24,085 bases of DNA from a phage: assembly GCA_031441445.1 (NCBI GenBank), contig GCA_031441445.1_4353.1. One strand, written 5' to 3'. Positions 1,435 through 24,085 of the stretch are shown one piece after another. Every line of letters begins with the position of its first letter. Position 1 is the first letter of the stretch. The notes below the pieces were generated by a model. That model did not search any database, was not told the origin of the DNA, and was given only the letters and a program-made list of their open reading frames with translations. Position numbers and translations under genes: made by a program.

Positions 1435-2916
1435 TTACTGCTGAGTGGTGTCCTGTTGCTGCGCCGACTGCGGAATCTCTCCCGCTACCTGAGCAACAGA
1501 ACCCAACGGCAGAGGTGCGTCTTCAATAGCGTTCTGAATGTCCTCATCTGTCCAGTCAGTCACACCTGCCTTGCGCAACGCAGCATAGTAAGCGGTGGCG
1601 GGTAGCAGGCCAGCGTTAATATCCGCCATCCACTGAGCGCGGTCCTGAGCTGTCATAGGTTGCAGGAAGAATTCCATATTCAGCTTGAACTCAATCTCAG
1701 TATCTTCACTAAGCCCAAGCATACCCGCAACCCAGCGCAACGCATCGGTATACGCCATGCTTACATTACGTGCTATTGTTGCCATGACTGACGTGTCGGC
1801 GCCGCGTTGCAGGCGGGCCGATTCCGCGGTGATTTGCTGCGTCGGGGTGATAAGCTGCGCGCCAATCTGGATGGCCTGATTCTCTTTATCCAGCATATTC
1901 TGTTTGGCGAGGTTAGTTTCCGCCGCCTGAACCAGAAACGCATTTCCGCCGGAGCCGATGTTGTGGCCTGAACGCGACCCCATGCGTATGCCGTGTGGGT
2001 TGGCTTCTTTCCACTGCTCCATGCTCATGTTCTCGCCGGGGGCAATGAACAGTGTCGGTTGACCTACTATAAAGCTGGCCTCTTCCACATCGGCCGAATT
2101 TCTGAAGTGTCCTATATTTAGCTCAGCTAACGGCAGTAAAGGCGCATCGTCTATAGTGGCGTCGTTGTTGCTTGCGCCAATGAACGTGAACGGGATTTTA
2201 CCGCGCAACTGTTCGCCGAGTTCCGGGAAGATTTCGATTACTTCATCCTGTGCGCCACCTTCGGCATCGAAGCGGTAGATGCGCTGGCGGTAGCGACCGT
2301 CAATCAGGTCAAGGACGCGGTATTGCTCGCCGAATTTTGTTTCAAACTCAGCGCCTGGTTCCGAGTATTCCCATGCCTCACGCAATACAACCATCGTCAC
2401 GCGGTTCACTGAACCGATGCGGGTGAGTCTCCAGTTGATAATGTTCTCCGCGGTATAGAATGCGATTACCGGGTTTAATAATCCCGCGTTCTGCTCTGCC
2501 GCCGTTGCTGCGGCTGTTTCCGGGGCATCCACCAGCAACCCACCGCGTCCTATCGAGTCAATCTCCATTAACGTATCCTGCGCGTGCTGCCACAGCCCTA
2601 CACCCGAACCGTCAGCGTTGTGCAACAGGTACTCAAGTTCAGGCGGGATAATCTGCTCAGGGTCTTTGCGCATCACTGACCCCGTCATCCCCGCCAGGGT
2701 ACGTTTAGTGAAGTTGTAACAGATAGCACCGTTCTCGTATTCTTCCTGGCGCTGGGCTGCGTAGGTCGGGTCAGGTTCGTTCTTCCCGACGTTGCGCAGA
2801 TAGCGAATAAGGTCGCCTTCCAGCGCGTGGCGTACCTTCTGCCATTTATCGAAGTGATGCAGCCATTCCCGGTGTTTTGTCTTAACACCCTGATTCTGAC
2901 CGTTCATAGTTAACAT
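1435..2916 (-). CDS. portal protein (putative)
   Basis: 493-aa ORF immediately downstream of the large terminase gene and upstream of the head morphogenesis gene (canonical TerS-TerL-portal-F order); AAGAGGA RBS before ATG at 2916. Assignment is by position and size; no diagnostic motif recognised. Confidence 0.65.
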   Translation of the reverse strand: MLTMNGQNQGVKTKHREWLHHFDKWQKVRHALEGDLIRYLRNVGKNEPDPTYAAQRQEEYENGAICYNFTKRTLAGMTGSVMRKDPEQIIPPELEYLLHNADGSGVGLWQHAQDTLMEIDSIGRGGLLVDAPETAAATAAEQNAGLLNPVIAFYTAENIINWRLTRIGSVNRVTMVVLREAWEYSEPGAEFETKFGEQYRVLDLIDGRYRQRIYRFDAEGGAQDEVIEIFPELGEQLRGKIPFTFIGASNNDATIDDAPLLPLAELNIGHFRNSADVEEASFIVGQPTLFIAPGENMSMEQWKEANPHGIRMGSRSGHNIGSGGNAFLVQAAETNLAKQNMLDKENQAIQIGAQLITPTQQITAESARLQRGADTSVMATIARNVSMAYTDALRWVAGMLGLSEDTEIEFKLNMEFFLQPMTAQDRAQWMADINAGLLPATAYYAALRKAGVTDWTDEDIQNAIEDAPLPLGSVAQVAGEIPQSAQQQDTTQQ

Positions 2917-2928
2917 TTAATAATCCTC

Positions 2929-4179
2929 TTAAAGTGCGAAAGTCACCGGGATGTTGATTACTGGTTTAACCACCGGCATCTCATAAACTACAGGATAGCC
3001 GAGAGCATCAGCCATATGGTCAATGACGCCGTCTTTAGCCGGCTCTCCGTTATCGTCGTATGCCTGCTGTTCCAGCGTCTTGGCTATCTCAGGACATAAG
3101 TGGTCATTAACCCACAGCTTACCTTTTTCCAGCGCGGTGTTCACGGCTAAAACGCGGTCTTTAACCGGGGGGTTGGCTGATTTAGCGCGAACATCGAAAC
3201 CCGCCTGCTGGAGTAATGCAATATCAGAGATTGACGCCGAGTTTGTCTTACGGTTCTTGCCGCTAGCGTCGGGGTAAACGACGATGCGGTGGCCTTGTGA
3301 CTTCCACTTCTCGGTAATTACGCGCACGGTGTCCGGCGTATCGAACAGGCCCTTCAGTTCTGCAACCGCGTGCCATCCATCTTTACGCTGCACATACACG
3401 GCGCTGGCGTTCTTCGTAACGTTGAAGTCCTGCCCGATGTACAGCGTGTCGCCCGGTTGAATTGTCTCTTTGCTGCGGTGCTTGCGTCGGTCGTATGCGT
3501 AATACACGCTTCCGGATGTCAGGTTGACAAACTCACCGTTCAGATACGCGTTAATCAGTTGCGCCGGGTAAGTCTCAGTCAGCGAGCTAATGTAATCCGG
3601 CGGCAGGAATCTGGCGTTCTCGTGAGTGGACGCCTGCACCATTGAGTAACTCGGCGTCGGGTTCTCCTTGAACTTGGCGTAAACGAACTTGAACCCTTCC
3701 GGAGTCGTGGTGACGGAGATGTGGTTAATTACCCCCGGGATAACCAGACGCATGCGGGCTACGATTTTGTACCACGCCAGCTCGGCTTTCTCACGGCTCA
3801 ATACGTCCAGCTCATCCACGACCGCAGCCGCGATTTTGAAGCCGACTATCGAGCCGGGGTTATCCATCGAGCGGCAGATAACAGTTCCGAGCACCGTCTT
3901 ACCGCGAGTGACCACGACTTCTTTGTCGCCAGATTTAACCAGCACATCGAGGCCGAGGAGGTTAGCCGCTTCCTCGAATGTCGGGTAGAAGATGTCGCGG
4001 ATAGCCGGGTAGGTGGGGCCGAAGTAGCCCAGGCGGGTACCCGGGTTCCGGAGCATGAACGTAAGCAGGTCGAGACAGCCGACAAATGTCTTGCCGCTAC
4101 CGAAGCCTCCGACATAGGCCTTGTATTTGTTATCGCAATTCAGGAACAGTGCCTGTGGTGCGGATAGCTGAATACTCAT
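2929..4179 (-). CDS. terminase large subunit
   Basis: 416-aa ORF with Walker A (YVGGFGSGKTFVG) and Walker B-like (AAVVDELDVL) motifs; ATG overlaps stop of upstream small ORF (ATGA); GAGGTAGAGGA RBS. Confidence 0.8.
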   Translation of the reverse strand: MSIQLSAPQALFLNCDNKYKAYVGGFGSGKTFVGCLDLLTFMLRNPGTRLGYFGPTYPAIRDIFYPTFEEAANLLGLDVLVKSGDKEVVVTRGKTVLGTVICRSMDNPGSIVGFKIAAAVVDELDVLSREKAELAWYKIVARMRLVIPGVINHISVTTTPEGFKFVYAKFKENPTPSYSMVQASTHENARFLPPDYISSLTETYPAQLINAYLNGEFVNLTSGSVYYAYDRRKHRSKETIQPGDTLYIGQDFNVTKNASAVYVQRKDGWHAVAELKGLFDTPDTVRVITEKWKSQGHRIVVYPDASGKNRKTNSASISDIALLQQAGFDVRAKSANPPVKDRVLAVNTALEKGKLWVNDHLCPEIAKTLEQQAYDDNGEPAKDGVIDHMADALGYPVVYEMPVVKPVINIPVTFAL

Positions 4180-7596: not shown

Positions 7597-8085
7597 TCAG
7601 CCTTTCACCGCGCGTCCAATAGCAACCGCCTCTTGCCACGGCTTACCGTCGAACAATGCCAGCCGCCCGGCGGTACGGCGGCGCAGGCCGAGTAACGGTT
7701 TGCCGTTCTGGTTGATGAACAGCGCCAGCTTAGCCCGCAGCGTCGCGATGTCACCAGAGCGCAGTGCCTTACCTGTACCGGTAGTAGCTGCGATAACGCC
7801 AGCGCCTGCGTTAAACACAAGGTCACACACGGCGTCGAACTGAGCCTGTGTCAGTGAGTGATGCGCTGCAGCGTCAACGGCGGCTACGGCCTTAGCCATA
7901 TCGCGATTGAGTAGCAGAAGACCCTGGCCGGGCGTGATGGTCTGCCCGGGCTTAACGTCTGGCCCGTAATGCCCGTAGCCAATAGTCAGGTACTTCTCGG
8001 CGGGTGTAGCACGATACGCAGTTCCCCGGAAGCCCTCGAACTCGGCACAAAAATGTAAGCCGTTATCTGAAATGTTTCGAGACAC
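7597..8085 (-). CDS. endolysin, GH24 lysozyme-like (T4 lysozyme / lambda R family)
   Basis: 162-aa ORF with N-terminal catalytic-region motif EFEGFRGTAYRATPAEKYLTIGYGH; GTG start at 8085 with a strong AAGGAGG RBS 8 nt upstream; follows two membrane-protein genes. Confidence 0.75.
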   Translation of the reverse strand: MSRNISDNGLHFCAEFEGFRGTAYRATPAEKYLTIGYGHYGPDVKPGQTITPGQGLLLLNRDMAKAVAAVDAAAHHSLTQAQFDAVCDLVFNAGAGVIAATTGTGKALRSGDIATLRAKLALFINQNGKPLLGLRRRTAGRLALFDGKPWQEAVAIGRAVKG

Positions 8086-9937: not shown

Positions 9938-10177
9938 TCACTCAGTAAAATCCCAAACTATTGTTACAGTATAACATAACACTTCTGGCGGCTCGGGTAA
10001 CGGCATCCAGTGCGTCACGTACTTATCGTAGTTATTCCAGAAAGGCTTTCTCCCGTCATCAGGAACGATGTAATAATCGTGTTGAACTGCGTTATTTAAC
10101 GTTTCATACACCAGGAATTCTTTATCCGTATACCCGTTACCCGGCAGCATCTCACTACACTTAATCCACTCGCCCAT
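9938..10177 (-). CDS. DUF551-like phage protein
   Basis: 79 aa with N-terminal WIKCSEMLPG and C-terminal THWMPLPEPP, as I recall for the DUF551 family (from memory, not searched); a paralog lies at 16029-16286. Confidence 0.5.
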   Translation of the reverse strand: MGEWIKCSEMLPGNGYTDKEFLVYETLNNAVQHDYYIVPDDGRKPFWNNYDKYVTHWMPLPEPPEVLCYTVTIVWDFTE

Positions 10178-10327: not shown

Positions 10328-10684
10328 TTAGTCCTCATGATATTTTTCAAACCAGAACACAACCGGGTCAGATTTCATTTCAACCAACCCCATACGAACC
10401 AGCGCTTTGCCTTTCCCGGACGCAAGGAATTCACGACGACCATCACTGATAATTCGCCGATAATCTTCCAGGCTACCGCAATGCTTGTGCAGATTGCATG
10501 GGCGGCATGCCGGAACCATGTTGGATATATCGTCGCGTTCCTGGTGAAGCATATTTCCATCAAAACGAATGACCGGTTTTACATGGTATGCATGCCACTT
10601 TTCACCAAGTTCGCAGCCACAATAAGCACAGCGACCGCCGAACTTCATACGCAATTCTGCTCGTTGTTTTTTAGTTATAGCCAT
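10328..10684 (-). CDS. HNH endonuclease
   Basis: ORF track 10328..10696 starts at GTG; ATG at 10684 preferred. HNH signature CAYCGCEL...WHAYHVKP...NMVPACRPCNLHKH (Cys pairs, His, Asn). Confidence 0.7.
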   Translation of the reverse strand: MAITKKQRAELRMKFGGRCAYCGCELGEKWHAYHVKPVIRFDGNMLHQERDDISNMVPACRPCNLHKHCGSLEDYRRIISDGRREFLASGKGKALVRMGLVEMKSDPVVFWFEKYHED

Positions 10685-10788
10685 ACCAACCCCCACAACG
10701 CGTGCACCGCATAAACGGCGCTGACAATTAAGATAAACGGGTAATTATTCACGGCAACCTCCCTCAGAGTCGTCGGCACTGGCGCCAT
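10675..10788 (-). CDS. tiny hydrophobic peptide (37 aa, MAPVPTTLREVAVNNYPFILIVSAVYAVHALWGLVWL)
   Basis: Unlisted ORF with one predicted TM helix; overlaps the HNH start by 10 nt; no clear SD. Confidence 0.25.
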   Translation of the reverse strand: MAPVPTTLREVAVNNYPFILIVSAVYAVHALWGLVWL

Positions 10789-11185: not shown

Positions 11186-11421
11186 CTACCTTGCTCACGG
11201 CAACTATAGAAACTTTTAATTATCAGTGACTTGGATATTTAGGCGGGATTAACAATAGACTTTGACCCTTCCGAAAGCGTCAGCGGAACTACACTCAAGT
11301 GCCTAATGGCACGCGTTGCGTTCCCTGCCGCTCCGCGGTCGCTTGCGATATCTCACAAGCTCAGTGAAGCTTAGCATATTTTCAAGTAAAAGTCAATACC
11401 AGTAGCATCTTTTGTATTTTA

Positions 11422-11461
11422 GTAACTTTGCGTGGTGTTTTGGTTGCTTTTACAAAGTTAC
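11422..11461. promoter_or_regulatory. perfect 9-bp inverted repeat upstream of the AlpA-like gene
   Basis: GTAACTTTG (11422-11430) / CAAAGTTAC (11453-11461) separated by 22 bp, 41-80 nt upstream of ATG 11502. Confidence 0.35.
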
Positions 11462-11501
11462 CGCCTTATACTTCGATACATATTACACAGGAGAGCGCGA
11501 G

Positions 11502-11672
11502 ATGACTATCAATGAAGTTGCAGAATTAATCGGCGTCACCCGCCAGACGATCAATAACTGGATTAAGAGTGGAAAGTTTCCTGATTGCAGCGTTAAAGTA
11601 ATGGGGCGCCGTTTACCAGGAACATTTGACCGTAATAAAGTTGAAGCGTGGATTAAGGAGAACGTGAAATGA
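11502..11672 (+). CDS. AlpA/excisionase-like helix-turn-helix DNA-binding protein
   Basis: ORF track 11412..11672; ATG at 11502 with AGGAGA RBS preferred. 56 aa with the HTH signature MTINEVAELIGVTRQTINNWIKSGKFP. Confidence 0.65.
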   Translation: MTINEVAELIGVTRQTINNWIKSGKFPDCSVKVMGRRLPGTFDRNKVEAWIKENVK

Positions 11673-11959
11673 AAGGTGTAATTTTCCACGATAAAGAAAA
11701 TGACAGTGCTTATATGGTCTATTTAGTGCAAGGTGAGTATGCGTTGTGTTTTAACGTTTCCTGTAAACTGGACTCATATTTGCCGTTTTGCGTTACAGAA
11801 GAATTGCAGTTGATTAGTCTAAGAAGACTCAGCACAATGTCGGCTTCCATCGATGTCTCCGACCACCTATCCTACGTTTATCAGTATTTCGGGGATGAGA
11901 TTGTCGCAGATTATTACCGTAAGTACGCGCATTTGATGGAATGTCTGGCTAATAGATAA
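11669..11959 (+). CDS. hypothetical protein (96 aa)
   Basis: ATG overlaps the upstream stop (ATGA); GGAG RBS. Confidence 0.5.
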   Translation: MKGVIFHDKENDSAYMVYLVQGEYALCFNVSCKLDSYLPFCVTEELQLISLRRLSTMSASIDVSDHLSYVYQYFGDEIVADYYRKYAHLMECLANR

Positions 11960-12016
11960 AAGAAGGCCCCAGCGTTAGAGCGCCGAGGCCAAATTACTTG
12001 CTGAAGGAAATACAAC

Positions 12017-14302
12017 ATGTCCGATGTAATTTTATCCTACTCGTGGTCACGCCGCAACGCGCGGGCGGGAAAAAAGGATATAAATGTCAGAACCGCACAC
12101 ACGGCAACACTGGACGACCTGAAAGAGTTAATCCAGCCGCTCGATGCCGTTCGCGACGGGATTAACCCTAAGACCGCGCCCGGTTATATCACCGCCGCGT
12201 GCGACTCAACGCACAGCACCGTAAAAGACCCGGAAACTGGAGACTTTAAGCAAGCGCGTAAAGGTTTTTTCTACCGCTGCGATGCGTCTGTAAGCAAATC
12301 GTCGCTGGCCTATCTGGATTTCGACAGCACAACACCGGAAGAGTATCAGGAAGCGGTGCGCCTGGTTAAGCGCAGCCGCTGGGCCATGTGCCTCTATACC
12401 ACGGCATCACATACTGATGAGTCACCGCGCTTTCGCGTCGTAATGCCACTGGCCCGTCCGGTGGAGGGTGGTGACATCATCCGTGTTCGTCATGGGTTGC
12501 TGGAGCACTTCTTCAAAGGCATGGGTGCGGACCGCAGCGGGTTCACTCTGTCGCAGCCGATGTACCTGCCGCCGGTCGGCGCTACCGTTATCTGGTCGCG
12601 CCGCAACGACCTGATCGACCCGAACGAGTTACTGGAAGGCATCCCAGCCGTTGACGTTAGCAGCGCATCGGATTACCAGATACCGGAAGAACTGCGCACC
12701 GCGTTTACAGACGCGTTTGAAGCACTGGCGTTTGAGTACGGCGGCGTCATGACGCCGCGCGGCCTTAAGATGCCAGCCACACCGGAACATGCCGAAAACT
12801 ACAGCGACCCGACACCGCGCCCGGACGACTTCCTGCTGTGCTTCCCGCGCGAGGGGTATGAAGCGCCAAACGTAACCATGATTCACGACACAGACATTAC
12901 GGCGACAGAAGGCCTGTCACCGAAAGAGGTGTGGAAGTACGCGTGCGATGCGACCGGGCTGCCGTTCAGTGAAGTCGCAGAGGCCATCGGTTGGGGGGCG
13001 CGTGAATCTGTCTCATGCAGCCTCGACGACCTGGAAGACGACGAGGACTCAGAGGAGGACGAGTTACCAGAACCGGTAAAGGCTGATTTCGTCGTTGAGG
13101 GGTACATGCCGTCGGATTGTATCTGGGATATTGTCGGGGAATCCGGCACGTACAAATCATTCTATACGCTGGGGATGATGTACCTGAGCGCCGCCGGGTA
13201 CCGGTTTGCGGGGGCTGACACCCAACGTTGCCACCATTTCTATATTGACGGCGAGGGTGGTGCAGCTACACGAACACGTATTGATGCACTCGCGGCTAAA
13301 TATGGCGAGGAAGGTAAAGATTATGTACATGTCATCGATATGGGCGAAATACTCGCTACGCATGGTGATAAAAAAATTCCAGCTCTAATCCGCAGGATGC
13401 GCGAAACCGCAGGGGATGAACCTATTGGCATGGTTGCCTTCGACACCCTTAACCAGACGCTGGCCCTGACGATTGATAAGTTCGACGAGAACAGTTCATC
13501 AACGGCAATCGGTATGGGTAAAGTTATCGCCATCCTGAAAGAAGTGCGCGATGCAACTAAAGCCGCTGTCGGTGTCGTTCACCATACTCCGAAGGGCGGA
13601 AAGAAAGCCCGCGGCAGTGGAGCATTGTATGCGGGTGTCGACGTGGAACTGACAATCGAACGCGCTACCGACCGTCAGATAAACGTATACCACTCTAAAT
13701 TTAAGCACGGTCCGCAACAGAAGACGGTTGGCATGGTACTGGAGTCTGTACAGTTCCGTGAAGCACCGCCGCCGAAAGAGTACCGCGCGGTTGAGTTCCT
13801 CGGTAGCACAGAGGAATACGGCACAATAGTAAACCTCGACCTGCCTGAGCCGCACAAGGCGCTTGTATTGATGCCGTGGGGCTTCGAGCCGTTCAAAACT
13901 GACGAGGAGAAAGAGAGGGAAGAAGGGTTAACTAACGAAGGTAAACAAAATGTACGTAAAACCATAGAGAACGCCGTCAACAGTTCCGAGGCCACGATAC
14001 TCGCGGCGTTTGAACTGGCGGAGGGGACCTACAACGGCAACGAGGGCATCACGGTATCCGCAGCGAATAAGCTCGCGCAGTCTGACCCCAACGCAAAGGC
14101 GTTTAACTCCAAAGAAGCCATAGAACGCGGGAAGATTAAGAAAATGGTTGAGGCTGGGTATCTTGTTCCGGGTACTGACGAAAACAATCAGATAATCCCA
14201 GGCCGTTACAGACTGAACACCATGATAACAGATAACAAGATTCCGAAGACAATATACGAACCGAATGAAATGCTGACAGTGACCGAGGAGGATTTGGAAT
14301 GA
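12017..14302 (+). CDS. bifunctional DNA primase/helicase (AEP-type primase-polymerase N-terminus fused to RecA-like ATPase)
   Basis: 761 aa. N-terminal AEP motifs LAYLDFD (DxD) and TTASHTD (sxH); acidic linker DDLEDDEDSEEDE; C-terminal Walker A GESGTYKS and H-motif VGVVHHTPKG; GAAGGAAA RBS. Confidence 0.7.
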   Translation: MSDVILSYSWSRRNARAGKKDINVRTAHTATLDDLKELIQPLDAVRDGINPKTAPGYITAACDSTHSTVKDPETGDFKQARKGFFYRCDASVSKSSLAYLDFDSTTPEEYQEAVRLVKRSRWAMCLYTTASHTDESPRFRVVMPLARPVEGGDIIRVRHGLLEHFFKGMGADRSGFTLSQPMYLPPVGATVIWSRRNDLIDPNELLEGIPAVDVSSASDYQIPEELRTAFTDAFEALAFEYGGVMTPRGLKMPATPEHAENYSDPTPRPDDFLLCFPREGYEAPNVTMIHDTDITATEGLSPKEVWKYACDATGLPFSEVAEAIGWGARESVSCSLDDLEDDEDSEEDELPEPVKADFVVEGYMPSDCIWDIVGESGTYKSFYTLGMMYLSAAGYRFAGADTQRCHHFYIDGEGGAATRTRIDALAAKYGEEGKDYVHVIDMGEILATHGDKKIPALIRRMRETAGDEPIGMVAFDTLNQTLALTIDKFDENSSSTAIGMGKVIAILKEVRDATKAAVGVVHHTPKGGKKARGSGALYAGVDVELTIERATDRQINVYHSKFKHGPQQKTVGMVLESVQFREAPPPKEYRAVEFLGSTEEYGTIVNLDLPEPHKALVLMPWGFEPFKTDEEKEREEGLTNEGKQNVRKTIENAVNSSEATILAAFELAEGTYNGNEGITVSAANKLAQSDPNAKAFNSKEAIERGKIKKMVEAGYLVPGTDENNQIIPGRYRLNTMITDNKIPKTIYEPNEMLTVTEEDLE

Positions 14303-14613
14303 ATATTTACGATTTTATAGATAACCCGTTTAAAGCAGTGAAGGCAGGATACCGCCCGTCATACCTGACATGTGTTTCCGCTGTAAGCAACAACTGGTGG
14401 ACTTTTTGTGTGTATGCAGCGGGGATTTTTGCGGAGTTTAAAGACATTTTAGACATGACGCTGGCAGAGATTATAAAGTGCCTTTTCAAATTAATTATAT
14501 CGATAACTATTGTTATAAGTTTTCCTGTAAGTGCGTGGTTTCTCGCCTGGATTCAGTACCTGAACGTGCAACACACTATTAAGAATTTGGAAGAACTCGA
14601 TAAGTTGCTATAA
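14299..14613 (+). CDS. small membrane protein (two predicted TM segments), low-GC moron candidate
   Basis: 104 aa; ATG overlaps primase-helicase stop (ATGA); hydrophobic stretches WWTFCVYAAGIFAEF and LFKLIISITIVISFPVSAWFLAWIQYL; visibly AT-richer than flanking genes. Confidence 0.55.
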   Translation: MNIYDFIDNPFKAVKAGYRPSYLTCVSAVSNNWWTFCVYAAGIFAEFKDILDMTLAEIIKCLFKLIISITIVISFPVSAWFLAWIQYLNVQHTIKNLEELDKLL

Positions 14614-14618
14614 AAAGA

Positions 14619-14637
14619 AAGGGGCTTTAAGCCCCTT
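14619..14637 (-). terminator. terminator hairpin for the XRE gene (possibly bidirectional)
   Basis: 7-bp stem AAGGGGC / GCCCCTT around loop TTTAA; the XRE stop codon (14627-14629) lies in the loop; followed on the minus strand by UCUUUUU. Confidence 0.5.
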
Positions 14638-14842
14638 CACCTAACGCCAGCCACTTGGCGTCTACTTCCAGAACTTCCGCCAGTTTGAACAGCGTTGCCG
14701 GGCGGACGTCCTGAGTTACTCCAAGTGCCAGTTGGTTAATCGCGCCCTGGGAAACGCCGGTCAGGGCCGCCAAACGGCGCTGGGAGATGCCGAGTTCTTT
14801 ACGGCGTTGTTCTACACGGGTGCCTAGTTCAGATGGTTGCAT
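14627..14842 (-). CDS. XRE-family (Cro/CI-type) helix-turn-helix transcriptional regulator
   Basis: 71 aa with HTH_3 signature GISQRRLAALTGVSQGAINQLALG; AAGGAG RBS; the only minus-strand gene inside the plus-strand module, with its own promoter and terminator. Confidence 0.8.
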   Translation of the reverse strand: MQPSELGTRVEQRRKELGISQRRLAALTGVSQGAINQLALGVTQDVRPATLFKLAEVLEVDAKWLALGEGA

Positions 14843-14872
14843 GTCAGTTACTCCTTAGTCAGTTGATATGTG

Positions 14873-14886
14873 AATAGTACCATATT
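14873..14886. promoter_or_regulatory. operator-like site O1 overlapping the XRE promoter -10 (AATAG-TACC-ATATT) with extended -10 TGGTACTAT
   Basis: Imperfect copy of the recurring palindrome; minus-strand TGnTACTAT (rc of 14874-14882) serves as an extended -10 for the XRE gene; the -35 is poor. Confidence 0.45.
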
Positions 14887-14906
14887 AATTATTTTAGAAA
14901 AGCCCA

Positions 14907-14935
14907 TTGACATGTGAATAGTTCGCTATTATAGT
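14907..14935 (+). promoter_or_regulatory. early promoter cassette (TTGACA-N17-TATAGT) with operator palindrome
   Basis: -35 14907-14912, -10 14930-14935; palindrome AATAG-TTCG-CTATT at 14917-14930 in the spacer; drives the operon starting at 14964. Confidence 0.55.
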
Positions 14936-14963: not shown

Positions 14964-15191
14964 ATGAACACAATCACTGGGGCCATAGCTAAAGGTTTTC
15001 GAGCAATTTTCGGCGCTCCGCAAGAAGTGTGCACAAAACATAAATTTGTACTTTCTTGCGTAGTAGGGGATGAGTTTGATGGGTTCGATAAACTTGTTGT
15101 CTGTGACCATTGCGGGCAAGAAGCTATTCAACACTCAAACGGTAAATTTGAACTAATAGACGATAGCCTTACTGAAGGCGACGGTGAGTAA
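14964..15191 (+). CDS. hypothetical small Cys/His-containing protein (possible zinc-binding)
   Basis: 75 aa with C-x3-H ... C-x2-C pattern (CTKHKF...CDHCG); GAGAGGGG RBS. Confidence 0.45.
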   Translation: MNTITGAIAKGFRAIFGAPQEVCTKHKFVLSCVVGDEFDGFDKLVVCDHCGQEAIQHSNGKFELIDDSLTEGDGE

Positions 15192-15759: not shown

Positions 15760-16032
15760 ATGATTTACCAACTCTACCGAGCCGTCGACAGGCGGGATAA
15801 CACAGAGGCGCTATGGCTATTGCGTGCTCCGTCCGGTGCGCACCAGATGGAAGAGATGGCGTACTTAGGAAAAGTACCACGGCCTAAAGATATAGGCCGT
15901 CACGTGTCACAGATTAAGCGCACAACTTTCGCCAAGCCTGACTTTTATGTCTTCGAGTCGATGTATGGGTGGGCCATGCACTGCGACCATAAGACACGAC
16001 ATTTAATTGACCAGTGGGAGAACAGGGTATGA
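15760..16032 (+). CDS. hypothetical protein (90 aa)
   Basis: ORF with ATG at 15760; its stop overlaps the downstream ATG (ATGA). Confidence 0.45.
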   Translation: MIYQLYRAVDRRDNTEALWLLRAPSGAHQMEEMAYLGKVPRPKDIGRHVSQIKRTTFAKPDFYVFESMYGWAMHCDHKTRHLIDQWENRV

Positions 16033-16286
16033 ATTGGGTTAGCGTAAACGAAGCACTACCAGAGTCAAAAGATGATTCTGTTTTAGTTTGCTCAGTAGAC
16101 GGAAGTAAATGTGACGATAATGGGTTCCCGGAAGGCGGAATTGATTTTGTGCATATACAGGACTATTTCGACGACATTACTGCTGGGCTGGATGAAAACG
16201 GAAATCAGTTATATACGAAACGGTATATCGAGATGGGTATAACACACTGGATGTATTTACCAGAACTACCGGAGGAGGCTAAATAA
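16029..16286 (+). CDS. DUF551-like phage protein (paralog of 9938..10177)
   Basis: ORF track 16014..16286 starts at GTG; ATG at 16029 preferred. MNWVSVNEALPE N-terminus and THWMYLPELPEE C-terminus parallel the minus-strand paralog. Confidence 0.5.
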   Translation: MNWVSVNEALPESKDDSVLVCSVDGSKCDDNGFPEGGIDFVHIQDYFDDITAGLDENGNQLYTKRYIEMGITHWMYLPELPEEAK

Positions 16287-17527
16287 TGATTCTAAAAGAA
16301 CGAGGCGGCAATAATGATGTACACGCCTTACTGTCACCGTCAGGCGCTAAAAAGTGGCTGTCATGCGCTGCGTCGCTGGCGTGTGAAAAAGATACCCCTA
16401 ACACGTCGGGTAAAGCCGCTGTATTAGGAACCGCCATGCACACCATAGCTGAGGTCCATCTCAACGCCTATATACGCGGCACTGCGTTGCCGTTGGAGCG
16501 TGAAGTCGGCGCTTACGTACTGGATGAAGGCAAAGGTCAGATTAAGGCGCTAATCAGCCCGATGAAAGGCGCGGTACTGATTACGGCGGACATGATTGAG
16601 CAGGTGCGCAAGTACACCGACTACTGCAAAGCGATTATAGACGTAGCGACTTACGCCAAGCTGGAAATGCGTGTCAATCTTACTGAGGTATTGCATCCGG
16701 GGTATGAAGGCGTTGAGACGTTCGGAACCGCTGACCTCGTTGCTGTCCAGGAACTGGCAAACACCGACGAGCACATGCTCATTATCGGCGACCTGAAAAC
16801 CGGGCGGCATCGCGTCGAAGCGAAAGAAAACAAGCAGCTTATGCTTTACGCTCTCGGTGTTTATCGTCGACTCAAGAGACGTTATAACATAACAACCGTT
16901 CGTCTGGTCATCTTCCAGCCTTACGCTGGGGGCGCGACAGAGTGGGACATCTCGGTTGAAGGACTGGAACTGTTCGCTAAGTTCGCACAGAAACGCGCGC
17001 TGTTAGCACTTGATGCATATTTCCGCGGTAAGAAGAACCTGAAAGCGTCAGACTTTAAGCCGTCAGTAGATGGTTGCCAGTGGTGCCGGTTCTCTGAACA
17101 GTGTGCCGCGCGTACAAAGACGGTTAATTCTGTACTGGCGGAAGAACTTGAAGACGACTTTGTGCTGGAACTGACGACGGAGCAACTCGTAGTTGAGTAT
17201 GAGAAGTTGCCGCTGTTGCGCCAGCACATCGACAAGGTTGAGAAAGCTATGGCGGCCGCGTTGCATTCAGGTAAGAAAGTTCCTGGTTACAAGTTGGTTG
17301 AAGGCCGCCCGGGTAATCGTGCATGGAAGGATACCGATGCGGTATTCGAAAAGTACGGTACTATGCTGCAAAAGGTAGTTCTCATGACGCCAACCGAAGC
17401 GGTTAAAGTTGTGCCTGAAGATGAACTGAAAGACTTCATTACACGTAAGCCAGGCGCACCATGTGTCGCAACGGCAGATGACAAACGTCCTGAGTGGAAT
17501 CAGGTTAGTGAAGAAGATTTGGAATAA
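16286..17527 (+). CDS. PD-(D/E)XK nuclease, Cas4/RecB-like with Cys cluster
   Basis: 413 aa. Motifs TADLV, IGDLKTG (D-x-K) and QLMLY (QxxxY); N-terminal Cys (WLSCAASLAC) plus C-terminal CQWCRFSEQC suggest an Fe-S cluster; GGAGGAGG RBS; ends in SEEDLE. Confidence 0.65.
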   Translation: MILKERGGNNDVHALLSPSGAKKWLSCAASLACEKDTPNTSGKAAVLGTAMHTIAEVHLNAYIRGTALPLEREVGAYVLDEGKGQIKALISPMKGAVLITADMIEQVRKYTDYCKAIIDVATYAKLEMRVNLTEVLHPGYEGVETFGTADLVAVQELANTDEHMLIIGDLKTGRHRVEAKENKQLMLYALGVYRRLKRRYNITTVRLVIFQPYAGGATEWDISVEGLELFAKFAQKRALLALDAYFRGKKNLKASDFKPSVDGCQWCRFSEQCAARTKTVNSVLAEELEDDFVLELTTEQLVVEYEKLPLLRQHIDKVEKAMAAALHSGKKVPGYKLVEGRPGNRAWKDTDAVFEKYGTMLQKVVLMTPTEAVKVVPEDELKDFITRKPGAPCVATADDKRPEWNQVSEEDLE

Positions 17528-21199: not shown

Positions 21200-22624
21200 A
21201 TGTCTAAATTTATCCGTCGAGAGTACCAGAAGCTCATGACTTCGTTCATGCTGCAACACCCGCGCTGTAATATCTGGTGCGGAATGGGGGGAGGTAAAAC
21301 CTCCTCCACTATGTGGGTGCTCAACCGCCTGTTCCGCAACGGGCAGCTTACGGAAGAGGACCGCGTGTTAATCCTTGCCCCGTTACGTGTTGCGTCCGGT
21401 ACGTGGCCCGCTGAACAAGAGAAATGGCAATTCCCTTGTCTGCGTGTCGTAGATGCAACTGGTTCGGAGAAGCGCCGCATCGCAGCGCTGGAGTCAGATG
21501 CTAACGTGGTGTGCACTAACTACGAAGTTATCGAGTGGCTAATTGACTACTACGGCAAAGACGACTGGCCTTTTACGGTTATCGTTGCCGATGAAAGCAC
21601 GAAGCTTAAATCGTTCCGCAGCCGTTCGGGTGGTAGCAAGCGGGCAAAGGCGCTCAGCAAGGTTGCGTTCGGAAAGGTTAAGCGTTTCATCAACCTGACA
21701 GGCACACCGTCACCAAACGGCCTCAAAGACTTGTGGGGTCAGAACTGGTTTATCGACGCTGGCGAGCGCCTCGGCTCTTCGTACACAGCATTCACCGACC
21801 GCTGGTTTAACTCGGTACAGAAAGGTAAATCGGCTATGGCCCGCGAGTATCATGCACGACCGGGTGCGGATAATGAGATTCATCAGAAGATGAAAGACAT
21901 CAGCCTGACCATAGACCCTGCCGAGTGGTTTGGTTGTGAAGCGCCTGTTATCGTACCGGTGGAAATAGACCTGCCGAAGAAAGCGCGTCAGGCGTACATA
22001 GATATGGAGGAGAAGTTATTCGCAGAACTGGAGAGCGGGGAAGTTGAAGCGGCTAACGCTGCGGCGAAGACCTCAAAGTGCTTGCAGATTGCATCTGGTG
22101 CTGTATATGTATCCGGGCCAGACGGCGAAGCAACCAAAGAATGGGAGAAAGTGCACGACACGAAACTGGATGCGCTGGCGTCCATTGTCGAGGAGTTACA
22201 GGGTGCGCCGTTACTGGTAGCCTATCAGTTCAAGCACGAACTGGAGCGCGTCCTTAAGCGATTCCCACAAGCACAGGCCTTTGCCAAAGGCGCCAGGGGT
22301 AATAAGCAGATGGAAGCATGGAACCGCGGGGAAATAGAGATTTTGTGCGTCCACCCTGCGTCCGCCGGGCATGGTTTGAATTTACAGGACGGGGGTCATC
22401 ATCTGGCGTTCATCTCGCAAGGCTGGAACCTTGAGCACTATTTGCAGGTTGTTGAGCGCATAGGCCCAGTCCGCCAGAAACAGGCGGGTCACGAGCGCCC
22501 GGTGTTCCTTTATCACATCGTTGCTAAAGACACTCTGGACGAGGTTGTCGCCGCGCGTACCGACGAGAAGAAATCGGTACAGGAAGAGTTGCTTAATTAC
22601 ATGAAGAGACGAGGTAAGAAATGA
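21200..22624 (+). CDS. SNF2-like (superfamily 2) helicase
   Basis: ORF track 21194..22624 starts at TTG; ATG at 21200 preferred. Motif I CGMGGGKTSST, motif II VIVADESTKLK, motif V-like HPASAGHGLNLQ, motif VI-like QVVERIGPVRQ. Confidence 0.75.
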   Translation: MSKFIRREYQKLMTSFMLQHPRCNIWCGMGGGKTSSTMWVLNRLFRNGQLTEEDRVLILAPLRVASGTWPAEQEKWQFPCLRVVDATGSEKRRIAALESDANVVCTNYEVIEWLIDYYGKDDWPFTVIVADESTKLKSFRSRSGGSKRAKALSKVAFGKVKRFINLTGTPSPNGLKDLWGQNWFIDAGERLGSSYTAFTDRWFNSVQKGKSAMAREYHARPGADNEIHQKMKDISLTIDPAEWFGCEAPVIVPVEIDLPKKARQAYIDMEEKLFAELESGEVEAANAAAKTSKCLQIASGAVYVSGPDGEATKEWEKVHDTKLDALASIVEELQGAPLLVAYQFKHELERVLKRFPQAQAFAKGARGNKQMEAWNRGEIEILCVHPASAGHGLNLQDGGHHLAFISQGWNLEHYLQVVERIGPVRQKQAGHERPVFLYHIVAKDTLDEVVAARTDEKKSVQEELLNYMKRRGKK

Positions 22625-23136
22625 TGGATTTCGAAGAGTTTCTACTTAAAGCTCATCTGCTGGCGCGTGGGTTTGACGCTGACCGTCTCCAGGTAGTCTT
22701 AGCCCCTGGAGTAGCTACGTTTTACCTGTGGGGGTTTGACGGTAGGCTTCGCGGATACCAGCATTACAAACCACATGCCGAAAAGAACTGTAAAAACCCT
22801 AAAGACGCGCGGTACTTTACCAGAACAACAAGGCCGTGTTTATGGGGGCTTGAGTATTTGCCGGAAAGCGGGGTGGTATTTGTTACCGAAAGCATATTCA
22901 AAGCCGTAGCCTTGATGAATTGCGGGTTCAATGCTGTAAGCGCACTGGGGTCAAATATATCAACAGACCTACGGCAGCAAATGTCACTTTTGCCGTATGA
23001 CTGGGTGTGCGCTGGCGACAATGATAAAGCTGGATTAAAGTTCAGCAAAACATTCACCAGAGGATTTGTATCTAACGACCTTGATGAACTTTGTGAAGAA
23101 GAAATAACGTATCTTGCGAGGAAATTTACCAGATGA
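22621..23136 (+). CDS. Toprim-domain protein (DnaG-like catalytic core)
   Basis: 171 aa with conserved Glu (VFVTESIFKAVAL) and DxD (VCAGDNDKAG) signatures; ATG overlaps SNF2 stop (ATGA). Confidence 0.55.
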   Translation: MMDFEEFLLKAHLLARGFDADRLQVVLAPGVATFYLWGFDGRLRGYQHYKPHAEKNCKNPKDARYFTRTTRPCLWGLEYLPESGVVFVTESIFKAVALMNCGFNAVSALGSNISTDLRQQMSLLPYDWVCAGDNDKAGLKFSKTFTRGFVSNDLDELCEEEITYLARKFTR

Positions 23137-23298: not shown

Positions 23299-24085
23299 TT
23301 AAGCCAACGACATTCTGGAGTTAGCGAAAGCTAAAGCCTGAGCCTGCGTCGTAAACTCAGCGATGAAGAAGTCACTAAATCTGATAACAGCACCTGAACC
23401 TCCCCCAGTAGAGACGTACAGACCTACAGTACCGTTAGCGGAAGCTTTACCCACACCAAATGTGCTAATCCACTCATCAGACTTAGTATAAACGCTACCC
23501 ATAGTAATACCTAACGTTATACTCACATCTGCTGTTCCTGATTGGAGGCGAGAGTTGACGCCCCACACGTACCATCTGCCGGATGTAAGTGTCGTTCTTG
23601 ACGCTACCATTTCATATAAACCGGACCTAGGGAATGAAAATTCGGTACATGTAGCGGCGTGAAGTCCGTCAGATACAGTCGAACCGTTAACGGTACCGCT
23701 ACCAGAAAAATTATGTCTACCTGAGTCAAATGTGATAGCTTTTAACTTATTCCCCGTCGGCGTATTAAACAATCGTCCCCTTGTTAAATTTCCTCGCAGA
23801 GACAAGTTTGTAGTGGCTATCGTTGCGGATTGCGACGCGACAGACTCTACAATAACGTCCTTTCCAGAGCTGCCGTTTAAATACACGTCGTGGGCTACGA
23901 TGGTGCTTTGTGCATCCACTACAATATCCTGATTACCATCGGCGTTGTCAAAACGGCAACCATAAGTTACTAAGTTGGAGTTGGATAGCTCGATGTTATT
24001 GAGATAAGAATACTCAGCAAAGAATATCGCGGTGTCTACCAACTTGAGAACTCGCGGTTTTTGCGCCACGCCGTCTACCCGAACA
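23299..24085 (-). CDS. tail fibre / receptor-binding protein-like, C-terminal part (5' end beyond window)
   Basis: Frame open to the window edge (ORF track starts at GTG 24069, but upstream codons remain open); G/S/T/N-rich composition (…GSGTVNGSTV…, …STGGGSGAV…); last gene of a minus-strand unit ending at the bidirectional terminator. Confidence 0.4.
   Translation of the reverse strand, partial: VRVDGVAQKPRVLKLVDTAIFFAEYSYLNNIELSNSNLVTYGCRFDNADGNQDIVVDAQSTIVAHDVYLNGSSGKDVIVESVASQSATIATTNLSLRGNLTRGRLFNTPTGNKLKAITFDSGRHNFSGSGTVNGSTVSDGLHAATCTEFSFPRSGLYEMVASRTTLTSGRWYVWGVNSRLQSGTADVSITLGITMGSVYTKSDEWISTFGVGKASANGTVGLYVSTGGGSGAVIRFSDFFIAEFTTQAQALAFANSRMSLA

Follow-up and report, generated by a model that had tools for sequence, protein, structure and literature searches.

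A candidate membrane-anchored accessory protein encoded in a swappable slot at the 3' end of the Kagunavirus helicase-primase operon

We analysed a stretch of phage DNA of 24,085 nucleotides (nt) (NCBI GenBank assembly GCA_031441445.1, contig GCA_031441445.1_4353.1), referred to below as the window, and focused on the open reading frame (ORF) at positions 14299-14613 of its plus strand, which encodes a protein of 104 amino acids (aa). An original prediction made from the DNA letters had described this ORF as a low-G+C gene for a membrane protein appended to the replication genes, and as a candidate moron with a role in superinfection exclusion or defence. In our reading, to which we give a probability of about 0.6, it is a dispensable accessory gene that occupies a swappable slot at the 3' end of the helicase-primase operon, is translationally coupled to that operon and encodes a membrane-anchored protein. 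With much less confidence, we propose for this protein a superinfection exclusion role of the type of T4 Imm.

A slot with three states in Kagunavirus

A region of 3.9 kb around 14299-14613 matched 117 phage records with 85-96% identity, nearly all of them Escherichia phages of the genus Kagunavirus. By sequence, the window belongs to a Kagunavirus (Guernseyvirinae), a K1G-like siphophage of Escherichia coli. Insert sizes at the locus were taken from the span of each match to a query in which the two slot flanks had been joined. Between the stop codon of the helicase-primase gene and the terminator downstream, the slot was found in three states, namely an insert of ~311 nt that carries a gene of the PHROGs family phrog_2638, to which the 104-aa protein belongs, an insert of ~194 nt that carries a 65-aa gene, or 0-5 nt. 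The ~311-nt insert is present in SHAK7858, SHAK7693, NRG857CP3, EC3-1 and 22664BS2, and the ~194-nt insert in K1G, K-02, phiEc3/4, Golestan, Ivi and others. The slot is empty (0-5 nt) in 40 of the 60 best-matching records inspected, among them AV104, K1H, K1ind2/3, the fFiEco phages and BASEL isolates. Searches with tblastn detected the phrog_2638 family in 12 and the 65-aa gene in 16 of the 117 Kagunavirus records. Among ~166 records of Salmonella phages (Jerseyvirus-type), only TS3 has a phrog_2638 homologue, at the same position.

Read directly, the empty-slot junction has the sequence GGAATAGGTAAAAAGAAAGGGGC. The start of either cassette lies at GGAATGA, in overlap with the stop codon of the helicase gene, and both end on the TAA of TAAAAAGAAAGGGGC (14611-14625, plus strand), which is the right junction of the slot; this TAA, at 14611-14613 in the window, provides the stop codon for both alternative cassettes. 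The same TAAAAAGAAAGGGGC is found after the 104-aa gene in the window and after the 65-aa gene in K-02, and in AV104 and Bas73 it comes directly after the stop codon of the helicase gene. On the left side, the C-terminus of the helicase-primase (..TEEDLE*) is the same in empty-slot genomes. On the right side, a convergent gene for a regulator of the XRE family is conserved as the flank, with 94-96% flank identity between genomes that have different slot contents.

The alternative cassette codes for a soluble 65-aa protein beginning with MSGKFKEVSDEL, which belongs to phrog_36357, a family without assigned function (positions 3395-3592 of the K-02 locus, L001, and 2827-3024 of the K1G locus, L002). 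This cassette is unrelated to the 104-aa gene and likewise overlaps the helicase stop codon in an ATGA arrangement. The 65-aa protein is also found in Skate-like phages of Salmonella, Klebsiella and E. coli.

Where the phrog_2638 gene is present in Kagunavirus, it occurs as three allele classes that are 72% identical at the nucleotide level, with a synonymous divergence (dS) of 0.7 to more than 1, whereas the flanks are 92-96% identical; ungapped 'up600' identities of ~0.37-0.41 are artefacts of insertions and deletions and were ignored. As 72% identical alleles sit inside 92-96% identical flanks, the sequence comparison argues for cassette exchange, and not divergence in place, as the origin of the allele differences. 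Such an exchange between phages would proceed by homologous recombination in the conserved sequences to either side of the slot, ..GAGGAGGATTTGGAAT at its left and TAAAAAGAAAGGGGC at its right end. From these comparisons, the 104-aa gene is an optional accessory gene in an accessory region of the nin-region type, which appears to us a better label than moron. The original prediction of acquired cargo at a module boundary thus holds up: the presence or absence of the gene in relatives reveals a three-state slot, the gene is not conserved at this position, and its G+C content is lower than that of the window.

The 104-aa gene and its family

The predicted ORF, with its 104-aa product, is indeed present at 14299-14613 on the plus strand, and phage SHAK7858 encodes a 'hypothetical protein' that has 100% identity to this product. 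The exact 104-aa sequence is found on 82 public contigs and named hypothetical in all of them. It matches the hidden Markov model of phrog_2638 over residues 1-98 (E 6.9e-33), which represents a full-length family match. A profile search against 1.84 billion representative proteins yielded 39 relatives (cluster representatives) at E<=1e-3. The full-length ones span 87-127 aa; the others are a few shorter fragments, together with three long proteins for which the match is confined to repeated hydrophobic stretches. phrog_2638, which has no assigned function, is matched by all 35 aligned relatives. Pairwise Nei-Gojobori ratios of nonsynonymous to synonymous divergence (dN/dS) of the gene are between 0.13 and 0.5 in all comparisons. 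Given this purifying selection and the conservation of the family, the ORF is a genuine gene, and the possibility of a spurious ORF was ruled out on the same grounds. We also discarded a minus-strand ORF at 14307-14489 as the true gene, as conservation tracks the plus frame.

Several homologues are truncated or frameshifted (P0023-25 and P0030) or were called as 67-aa proteins (P0013, P0015, P0020 and P0021). As these might be assembly or gene-calling artefacts, they were excluded as evidence of decay. The 35-member phrog_2638 alignment is too divergent for locus scanning, and a scan of representative bacterial genomes with the family pattern gave no match. Some of the public records are themselves inconsistent. 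SHAK7858 (OR594183, L004) is labelled Autographiviridae/Kayfunavirus and 'vB_EcoM' and is a Kagunavirus by sequence; the EC3-1 record (L024) calls its phrog_2638 homologue a 'helix-turn-helix domain-containing protein'; and the TS3 record (L005) annotates only the last 50 codons of an intact homologue of 102 codons.

Coupling to the helicase-primase gene and the moron label

The gene upstream of the cassette encodes the replicative helicase-primase of 761 aa (12017-14302, plus strand; phrog_3228, E 2.7e-285; AAA_25, E 5.8e-20), and its last codons, which specify ..TEEDLE*, hold the ribosome-binding site of the cassette. Direct reading of the sequence identifies the Shine-Dalgarno element GAGGAGG at 14285-14291 on the plus strand, 7 nt before the ATG and inside the helicase-primase coding sequence. 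GAGGAGG is also kept in genomes in which the slot is empty or contains the 65-aa cassette. The ATG of the cassette (14299-14301) overlaps the TGA of the helicase-primase gene (14300-14302). This ATGA start/stop overlap indicates translational coupling of the cassette to the helicase-primase gene; coupling to that stop codon had been predicted, and both the overlap and the GAGGAGG element provide the layout for it.

A consensus scan, as distinct from transcript mapping, revealed no plus-strand promoter-like site between 12017 and 14299, and the only such site nearby (14450-14479, 9/12) lies within the 104-aa gene. Downstream of the cassette, a terminator scan detected a GC-rich hairpin at 14619-14637 on the minus strand (stem 14619-26/14630-37), with a folding energy of -17.3 kcal/mol on that strand and -12.7 kcal/mol on the plus strand (z about -2.4). 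The loop of the hairpin is the stop codon of the convergent gene for the XRE/Cro-like helix-turn-helix regulator (14627-14842, minus strand, 71 aa; HTH_3, E 3.9e-13). Since its T-run sits on the minus strand, the sequence identifies the hairpin as a canonical intrinsic terminator for the XRE gene; seen from the plus-strand operon, it amounts only to an A-tract plus hairpin. The original prediction had placed a terminator and the XRE regulator directly after the gene; the hairpin and the convergent XRE gene are both there, but the canonical terminator serves the minus strand.

These features bear directly on the term moron. In the strict sense, the gene would be an autonomous unit with its own promoter and terminator, expressed apart from the replication operon, for instance in a carrier or pseudolysogenic state. 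Its low G+C content, its presence/absence polymorphism and the hairpin directly downstream would fit this possibility, and it resembles the morons of Hendrix and Juhala in being found in some genomes and missing from close relatives at the same site. However, it differs from them in that the consensus scan does not identify it as autonomous and that it lies inside a coupled operon: the upstream operon provides no promoter-like site and the sole nearby one is internal to the gene, the start codon overlaps the upstream stop codon, and the T-run of the hairpin serves the opposite strand. As for the distinct composition of such morons, the G+C content of 0.387 relative to 0.505 for the window must be read together with an expectation of 0.430 from its amino-acid composition and with values of 0.44-0.45 in sister alleles. 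Furthermore, the genus Kagunavirus is described as lytic, so that no prophage expression is to be expected, and the prophage homologue of the gene sits in a repressor-controlled early operon (nin region). Altogether we regard a strict moron as the least plausible of the explanations considered here, and as a very improbable one.

Nucleotide composition

The original prediction had noted that the gene is richer in A+T than its neighbours. With a G+C content of 38.7% (0.387) compared with 50.5% (0.505) for the window, it is indeed the lowest of ~32 genes examined. When synonymous codons were redrawn from the window's own codon usage, however, the expected G+C content of the gene was 0.430 +/- 0.017, and thus about two thirds of the deficit stem from its I/F/L/K/N-rich amino-acid composition. 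A synonymous deficit remains (G+C content at third codon positions of 0.456 versus 0.563 expected, z -2.3); seven other genes of the window equal or surpass it, at 10328-10696, 11669-11959, 14964-15191, 16014-16286, 22621-23136, 23299-24069 and 11412-11672 (z -2.1 for the latter). The sister alleles have a G+C content of 0.44-0.45, and the relatives in other phages deviate from their surroundings by -0.07 to +0.03, being usually only slightly AT-richer. The low G+C content of the 104-aa gene is real; taken by itself, it is a weak indication of foreign origin.

One of the genes most AT-biased at synonymous sites (16014-16286, plus strand, z -3.7) is a DUF551 gene. It has a paralogue on the opposite strand, at 9938-10177 (E 6e-12 for the minus-strand copy and 1e-8 for the plus-strand copy).

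Protein architecture and membrane helix

The AlphaFold2 (AF2) model of the 104-aa protein is all-helical, with a predicted local distance difference test score (pLDDT) of 89.5. Three short helices (residues 3-8, 10-15 and 22-30) precede a fourth (33-52), which a turn at a conserved DMT separates from one long helix spanning residues 55-103. The signature of the family consists of the N-terminal F..P..AV..GY.PS.LDC.S, followed by a DMT[ILV]RE turn and by a membrane helix that has a Pro at its centre and W..G. In family alignments the conserved N-terminal motif, MNIYDFIxxPFKAVxAGYRPSYLTCVS, corresponds to codons 1-30 (14299-14388, plus strand). Over 35 members, down to 20% identity, G17 does not vary, and the conservation of P10, Y18 and P20 is 90% or higher. 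Based on dN/dS and the AF2 model, codons 31-72 (14389-14514, plus strand) form a hypervariable helical hairpin that runs from helix 33-52 through the DMT turn into the beginning of the long helix. When allele classes A and B are compared, these codons have a dN of 0.64 and a dN/dS of 0.5-0.97, whereas codons 73-104 are tightly constrained, with values of 0.06-0.09 for the same comparison.

Our membrane-helix calls are predictions based on hydrophobicity scales (KD19 and Hessa) rather than on a dedicated topology predictor. They identify a single robust transmembrane helix, LIISITIVISFPVSAWFLAWIQYL, with the conserved Pro76, at codons 65-88 (14491-14562, plus strand). Residues ~65-88 of this protein have a KD19 value of 2.22 and a Hessa sum of 0.43 kcal/mol; in the family, the C-proximal helix reaches KD19>=1.6 in 31 of 35 members, with a Hessa sum of about 0. 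The original prediction had described a protein with two transmembrane segments, a claim that we do not retain. The earlier segment, at residues 26-44, has a KD19 value of 0.94 and a summed Hessa free energy of +6.3 kcal/mol and passes in only five of the 35 members; in the class B sister alleles it reads ..CKLALEEVAELRHVL.. and carries K/E/E/E/R charges. We read the product as a predicted single-pass, C-proximally anchored membrane protein with a polar N-terminal part of ~60 residues and a short polar tail. Its location is most likely the inner membrane, and the bulk of the protein is probably cytoplasmic for this allele. The totals of Lys and Arg residues favour an N-in topology in 24 of the 35 members.

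Homologues outside Kagunavirus

Relatives of the gene are found in several unrelated types of phages. In 59-kb Mulvp2-like phages, a homologue with 50-57% identity is part of a series of small genes of early type, where it overlaps the preceding small ORF at the stop codon of the latter and is convergent with the genes for a VapE/DUF5906 primase-helicase and a methylase. Lambdoid prophages have the homologue in their nin region, following a gene for a DnaB-type helicase and preceding those for a Q-type antiterminator and lysis proteins, and members of the lambdoid-prophage cluster are annotated in Yersinia chromosomes. The gene order in one such contig (L019) is cI, cro, cII, O, DnaB-type helicase, two small genes, phrog_2638, NinF, YbcO, RusA, NinH and Q; in another prophage (L032), the phrog_2638 gene follows a DUF1367 gene and precedes genes for a Metallophos phosphatase, YbcO, RusA and a DUF1133 protein. 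The 253-kb Dickeya jumbo phages also have a homologue, among hypothetical genes. In every context examined the gene is co-directional with its neighbours inside a lytic early-type operon. This distribution in sequence databases indicates that phrog_2638 genes are mobile between unrelated phages.

Proposed function and alternatives

Similarity searches gave no direct clue to function. In Pfam, the only matches of the 104-aa protein and its family are sub-threshold ones to DUF4750 and TatC, which involve the hydrophobic helix and are seen for 2-3 of 35 members. Neither NCBIfam nor PDB sequence searches returned a match for the 104-aa protein, and PADLOC-DB gave none at E<=0.1 for this protein or three distant relatives. 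Among the 35 members, the only second PHROG matches at E<=0.05 were three single-member matches to families without assigned function. For 10 phrog_2638 clusters, the source names are all 'hypothetical protein'. Profile comparison with hhalign indicated no similarity to T4 Imm (probability 1.1%), T4 Sp (0.1%) or HK97 gp15 (2.4%), and a literature search found no study of the gene. The homology check suggested by the original prediction thus came back empty for annotated exclusion and defence families (PHROGs, PADLOC, Pfam, NCBIfam, PDB and hhalign), and by these sequence searches the 104-aa protein is not a member of any known exclusion family.

In our proposal, the cassette would be transcribed with the replication genes, with no promoter of its own, and its translation would be coupled to the helicase-primase stop codon. 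In the Kagunavirus vB_Eco_K1B4, the gene for an AAA-domain protein (helicase) was classed as 'middle' by RNA-seq (PMC12645636). As the cassette is coupled to the helicase gene, we infer the same 'middle' timing for it. The product, made in the replication phase, would alter the inner membrane of the infected cell such that the DNA of secondary phages is kept out, in the manner of Imm, and the hypervariable hairpin would set the specificity of exclusion. That the centre is hypervariable while the ends are conserved would be in keeping with a specificity element in an arms race. Imm-like superinfection exclusion at the inner membrane remains a tentative proposal, made by analogy with T4. In that phage, sp is located three genes after the helicase gene 41, and imm between genes 43 and 42, so that early exclusion genes can sit in the replication operons of virulent phages. 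Imm and Sp are also small, early, non-essential envelope proteins of a virulent phage. They differ from the 104-aa protein by the lack of detectable homology and by their architecture: Imm is almost entirely hydrophobic over its first ~65 residues and Sp is periplasmic, whereas the 104-aa protein has a polar N-terminal domain of ~60 residues and one predicted C-proximal helix, and exclusion is a proposed role for it. HK97 gp15 is another small superinfection exclusion protein of the inner membrane, and it is similarly a cargo protein, missing from close relatives, with a terminator just downstream of its gene. However, the annotation of gp15 makes it an autonomous moron located among the tail genes of a temperate phage, and its expression is from the prophage, unlike that of the promoterless 104-aa gene, which is coupled to a replication gene in a lytic phage.

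Several observations weigh against our reading. The protein has no similarity to any annotated exclusion, defence or anti-defence family. The phrog_2638 family is common to phages with unrelated tails and injection machinery, and the prophage homologue sits in the repressed nin region, which is not the usual site of prophage exclusion genes. Strongly basic C-terminal tails in many distant members are at odds with an N-in topology. Finally, we infer the dispensability of the gene from natural variation, in the form of empty slots. The unrelated injection machinery and the nin location imply that a host-directed role fits at least as well as exclusion. In such a role, the tethered N-terminal motif would bind and neutralise a conserved host protein of the inner membrane or associated with it during lytic growth, for the purpose of counter-defence or host take-over; candidate targets are abortive-infection effectors, proteases such as FtsH, and proteins of division or transport. 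It would explain why the N-terminal motif is kept down to 20% overall identity across unrelated virions and in phages of different hosts (E. coli, Salmonella, Enterobacter, Yersinia and Dickeya), and why the gene is in a lytic early operon everywhere, the prophage-repressed nin region included. Moreover, anti-defence accessory genes concentrate in variable slots between core genes (10.1101/2023.04.06.535777). Nevertheless, no known anti-defence or defence model matches the protein, most characterised anti-defence proteins are soluble, and the hypervariable centre is equally well explained by exclusion specificity. We consider a host-directed factor the next most likely mechanism after exclusion, and a similarly tentative one.

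Roles in the phage's own replication or lysis appear considerably less probable. A membrane protein encoded with the helicase-primase might tether this enzyme or the replicating DNA to the inner membrane, like phi29 p16.7, which is also a small membrane-anchored early protein encoded with replication genes. Coupling would link the synthesis of the two partners, and relatives of the gene are found zero to three genes after the replicative helicase gene in Kagunavirus, in Jerseyvirus TS3 and in lambdoid prophages, and within about 2 kb of the VapE/DUF5906 primase-helicase gene in the 59-kb phages. Yet most Kagunaviruses lack the gene and have the same helicase-primase C-terminus, and an unrelated soluble 65-aa protein can fill the slot. 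In the 59-kb phages the gene belongs to a different, convergent operon, and in the jumbo phage no replication gene is annotated nearby. As the early operons of small phages contain mostly replication genes, chance would be enough to place the gene near them. In p16.7, which the phages of its group conserve, the anchor is N-terminal and a DNA-binding domain is at the C-terminus. In contrast, the anchor of the 104-aa protein is C-proximal, Pfam-type searches found no DNA-binding motif in it, and it is missing from most close relatives. An obligatory partner of the helicase was ruled out, as empty-slot genomes have the same helicase tail, and we deem even an auxiliary replication tether improbable. 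A contribution to lysis timing, as a holin, antiholin or pinholin-like factor that modulates membrane permeabilisation, might be envisaged for a small helical membrane protein whose helix weakly resembles DUF4750 and TatC, although these Pfam matches are below the gathering thresholds and limited to a few members. A separate lysis cassette is present on the opposite strand of the window, at a distance of about 6 kb, with a Phage_lysozyme endolysin gene at 7597-8085; the near-identical SHAK7858 has an endolysin and two annotated holins; and in none of the contexts examined does the phrog_2638 gene adjoin lysis genes. Because the phage has this cassette, we rejected a lysis role, which seems to us more doubtful still than a replication tether.

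Returning to exclusion or counter-defence, it is conceivable, though far from established, that phrog_2638 represents an unrecognised family of membrane-anchored proteins involved in phage-phage or phage-host conflicts. By its sequence features, such a protein would combine an N-terminal effector motif, a specificity hairpin and a conserved anchor, and its gene would be traded among virulent siphophages, jumbo phages and lambdoid nin regions.

Accessory regions and significance

The nin region of lambda is the classical example of an accessory region. Such regions, defined as variable slots flanked by core genes, were formalised by Silas et al. (10.1101/2023.04.06.535777). The slot described here resembles them in being variable between a conserved helicase-primase gene and a conserved XRE gene, with 92-96% identical flanks, and in holding a small gene that is horizontally exchanged, has fast-diverging alleles and, judging from the natural empty states, is non-essential. 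The likeness to the lambda nin region extends to gene content, since phrog_2638 members lie in lambdoid nin regions, between the genes for the DnaB-type helicase and NinF/YbcO/RusA/Q. The difference is that the Kagunavirus slot contains a single gene and not a cluster. The Nin families of Pfam match neither the 104-aa protein nor other members of its family, and, to our knowledge, none of the nin genes described so far has a membrane protein as its product. The 104-aa gene was not found in the supplementary files of 10.1101/2023.04.06.535777.

Kagunaviruses are used against K1 and uropathogenic E. coli. If the proposed role in exclusion or counter-defence is correct, the gene would represent a compact factor of 104 aa that could affect the behaviour of therapeutic Kagunaviruses in cocktails and on defended hosts. 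The natural three-state slot, with the 104-aa gene, the 65-aa gene or nothing, offers a ready-made isogenic comparison, and it is a proven permissive site for the insertion of payloads in these small phages. Otherwise, the slot would be a case of routine phage mosaicism, and phrog_2638 an uncharacterised but already catalogued family.

Neighbouring elements

The divergent region between the XRE gene and the plus-strand operon that starts at 14964 harbours two 25-nt direct repeats, TTGAyATGTGAATAGT..., at 14863-14887 and 14907-14931, which are 84% identical and 44 nt apart. The second copy (14907-14931) coincides with a sigma-70 promoter matching the consensus at 11/12 positions (TTGACA-17-TATAGT), and a 10/12 promoter in the same region points the opposite way. 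The two repeats are probably paired promoter/operator sites for the XRE protein.

Another A-tract with a GC-rich hairpin and a minus-strand T-run is present at 11965-11990, between the ORF at 11669-11959 and the helicase-primase gene. It sits inside the plus-strand operon, in the same layout as at 14611-14638, and may serve as a stop for antisense transcription or as a processing site.

In the BEU33 record (OM632667, L030), the 3' end of the helicase-primase gene is apparently interrupted, at 338-785 of the locus, by an inverted copy of sequence of the 14964-type ORF. As this record is flagged UNVERIFIED_ORG, the interruption may be an assembly artefact or a rearrangement.

Lastly, the helicase-primase (..TVTEEDLE*, 14285-14302) and the DUF2800/PD-(D/E)XK exonuclease (..VSEEDLE*, 17510-17527) end in the same acidic C-terminal pentapeptide. 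Acidic C-terminal tails are found in T7 gp4 and gp2.5, and by analogy the common tail may be a docking site for another protein of the replisome.

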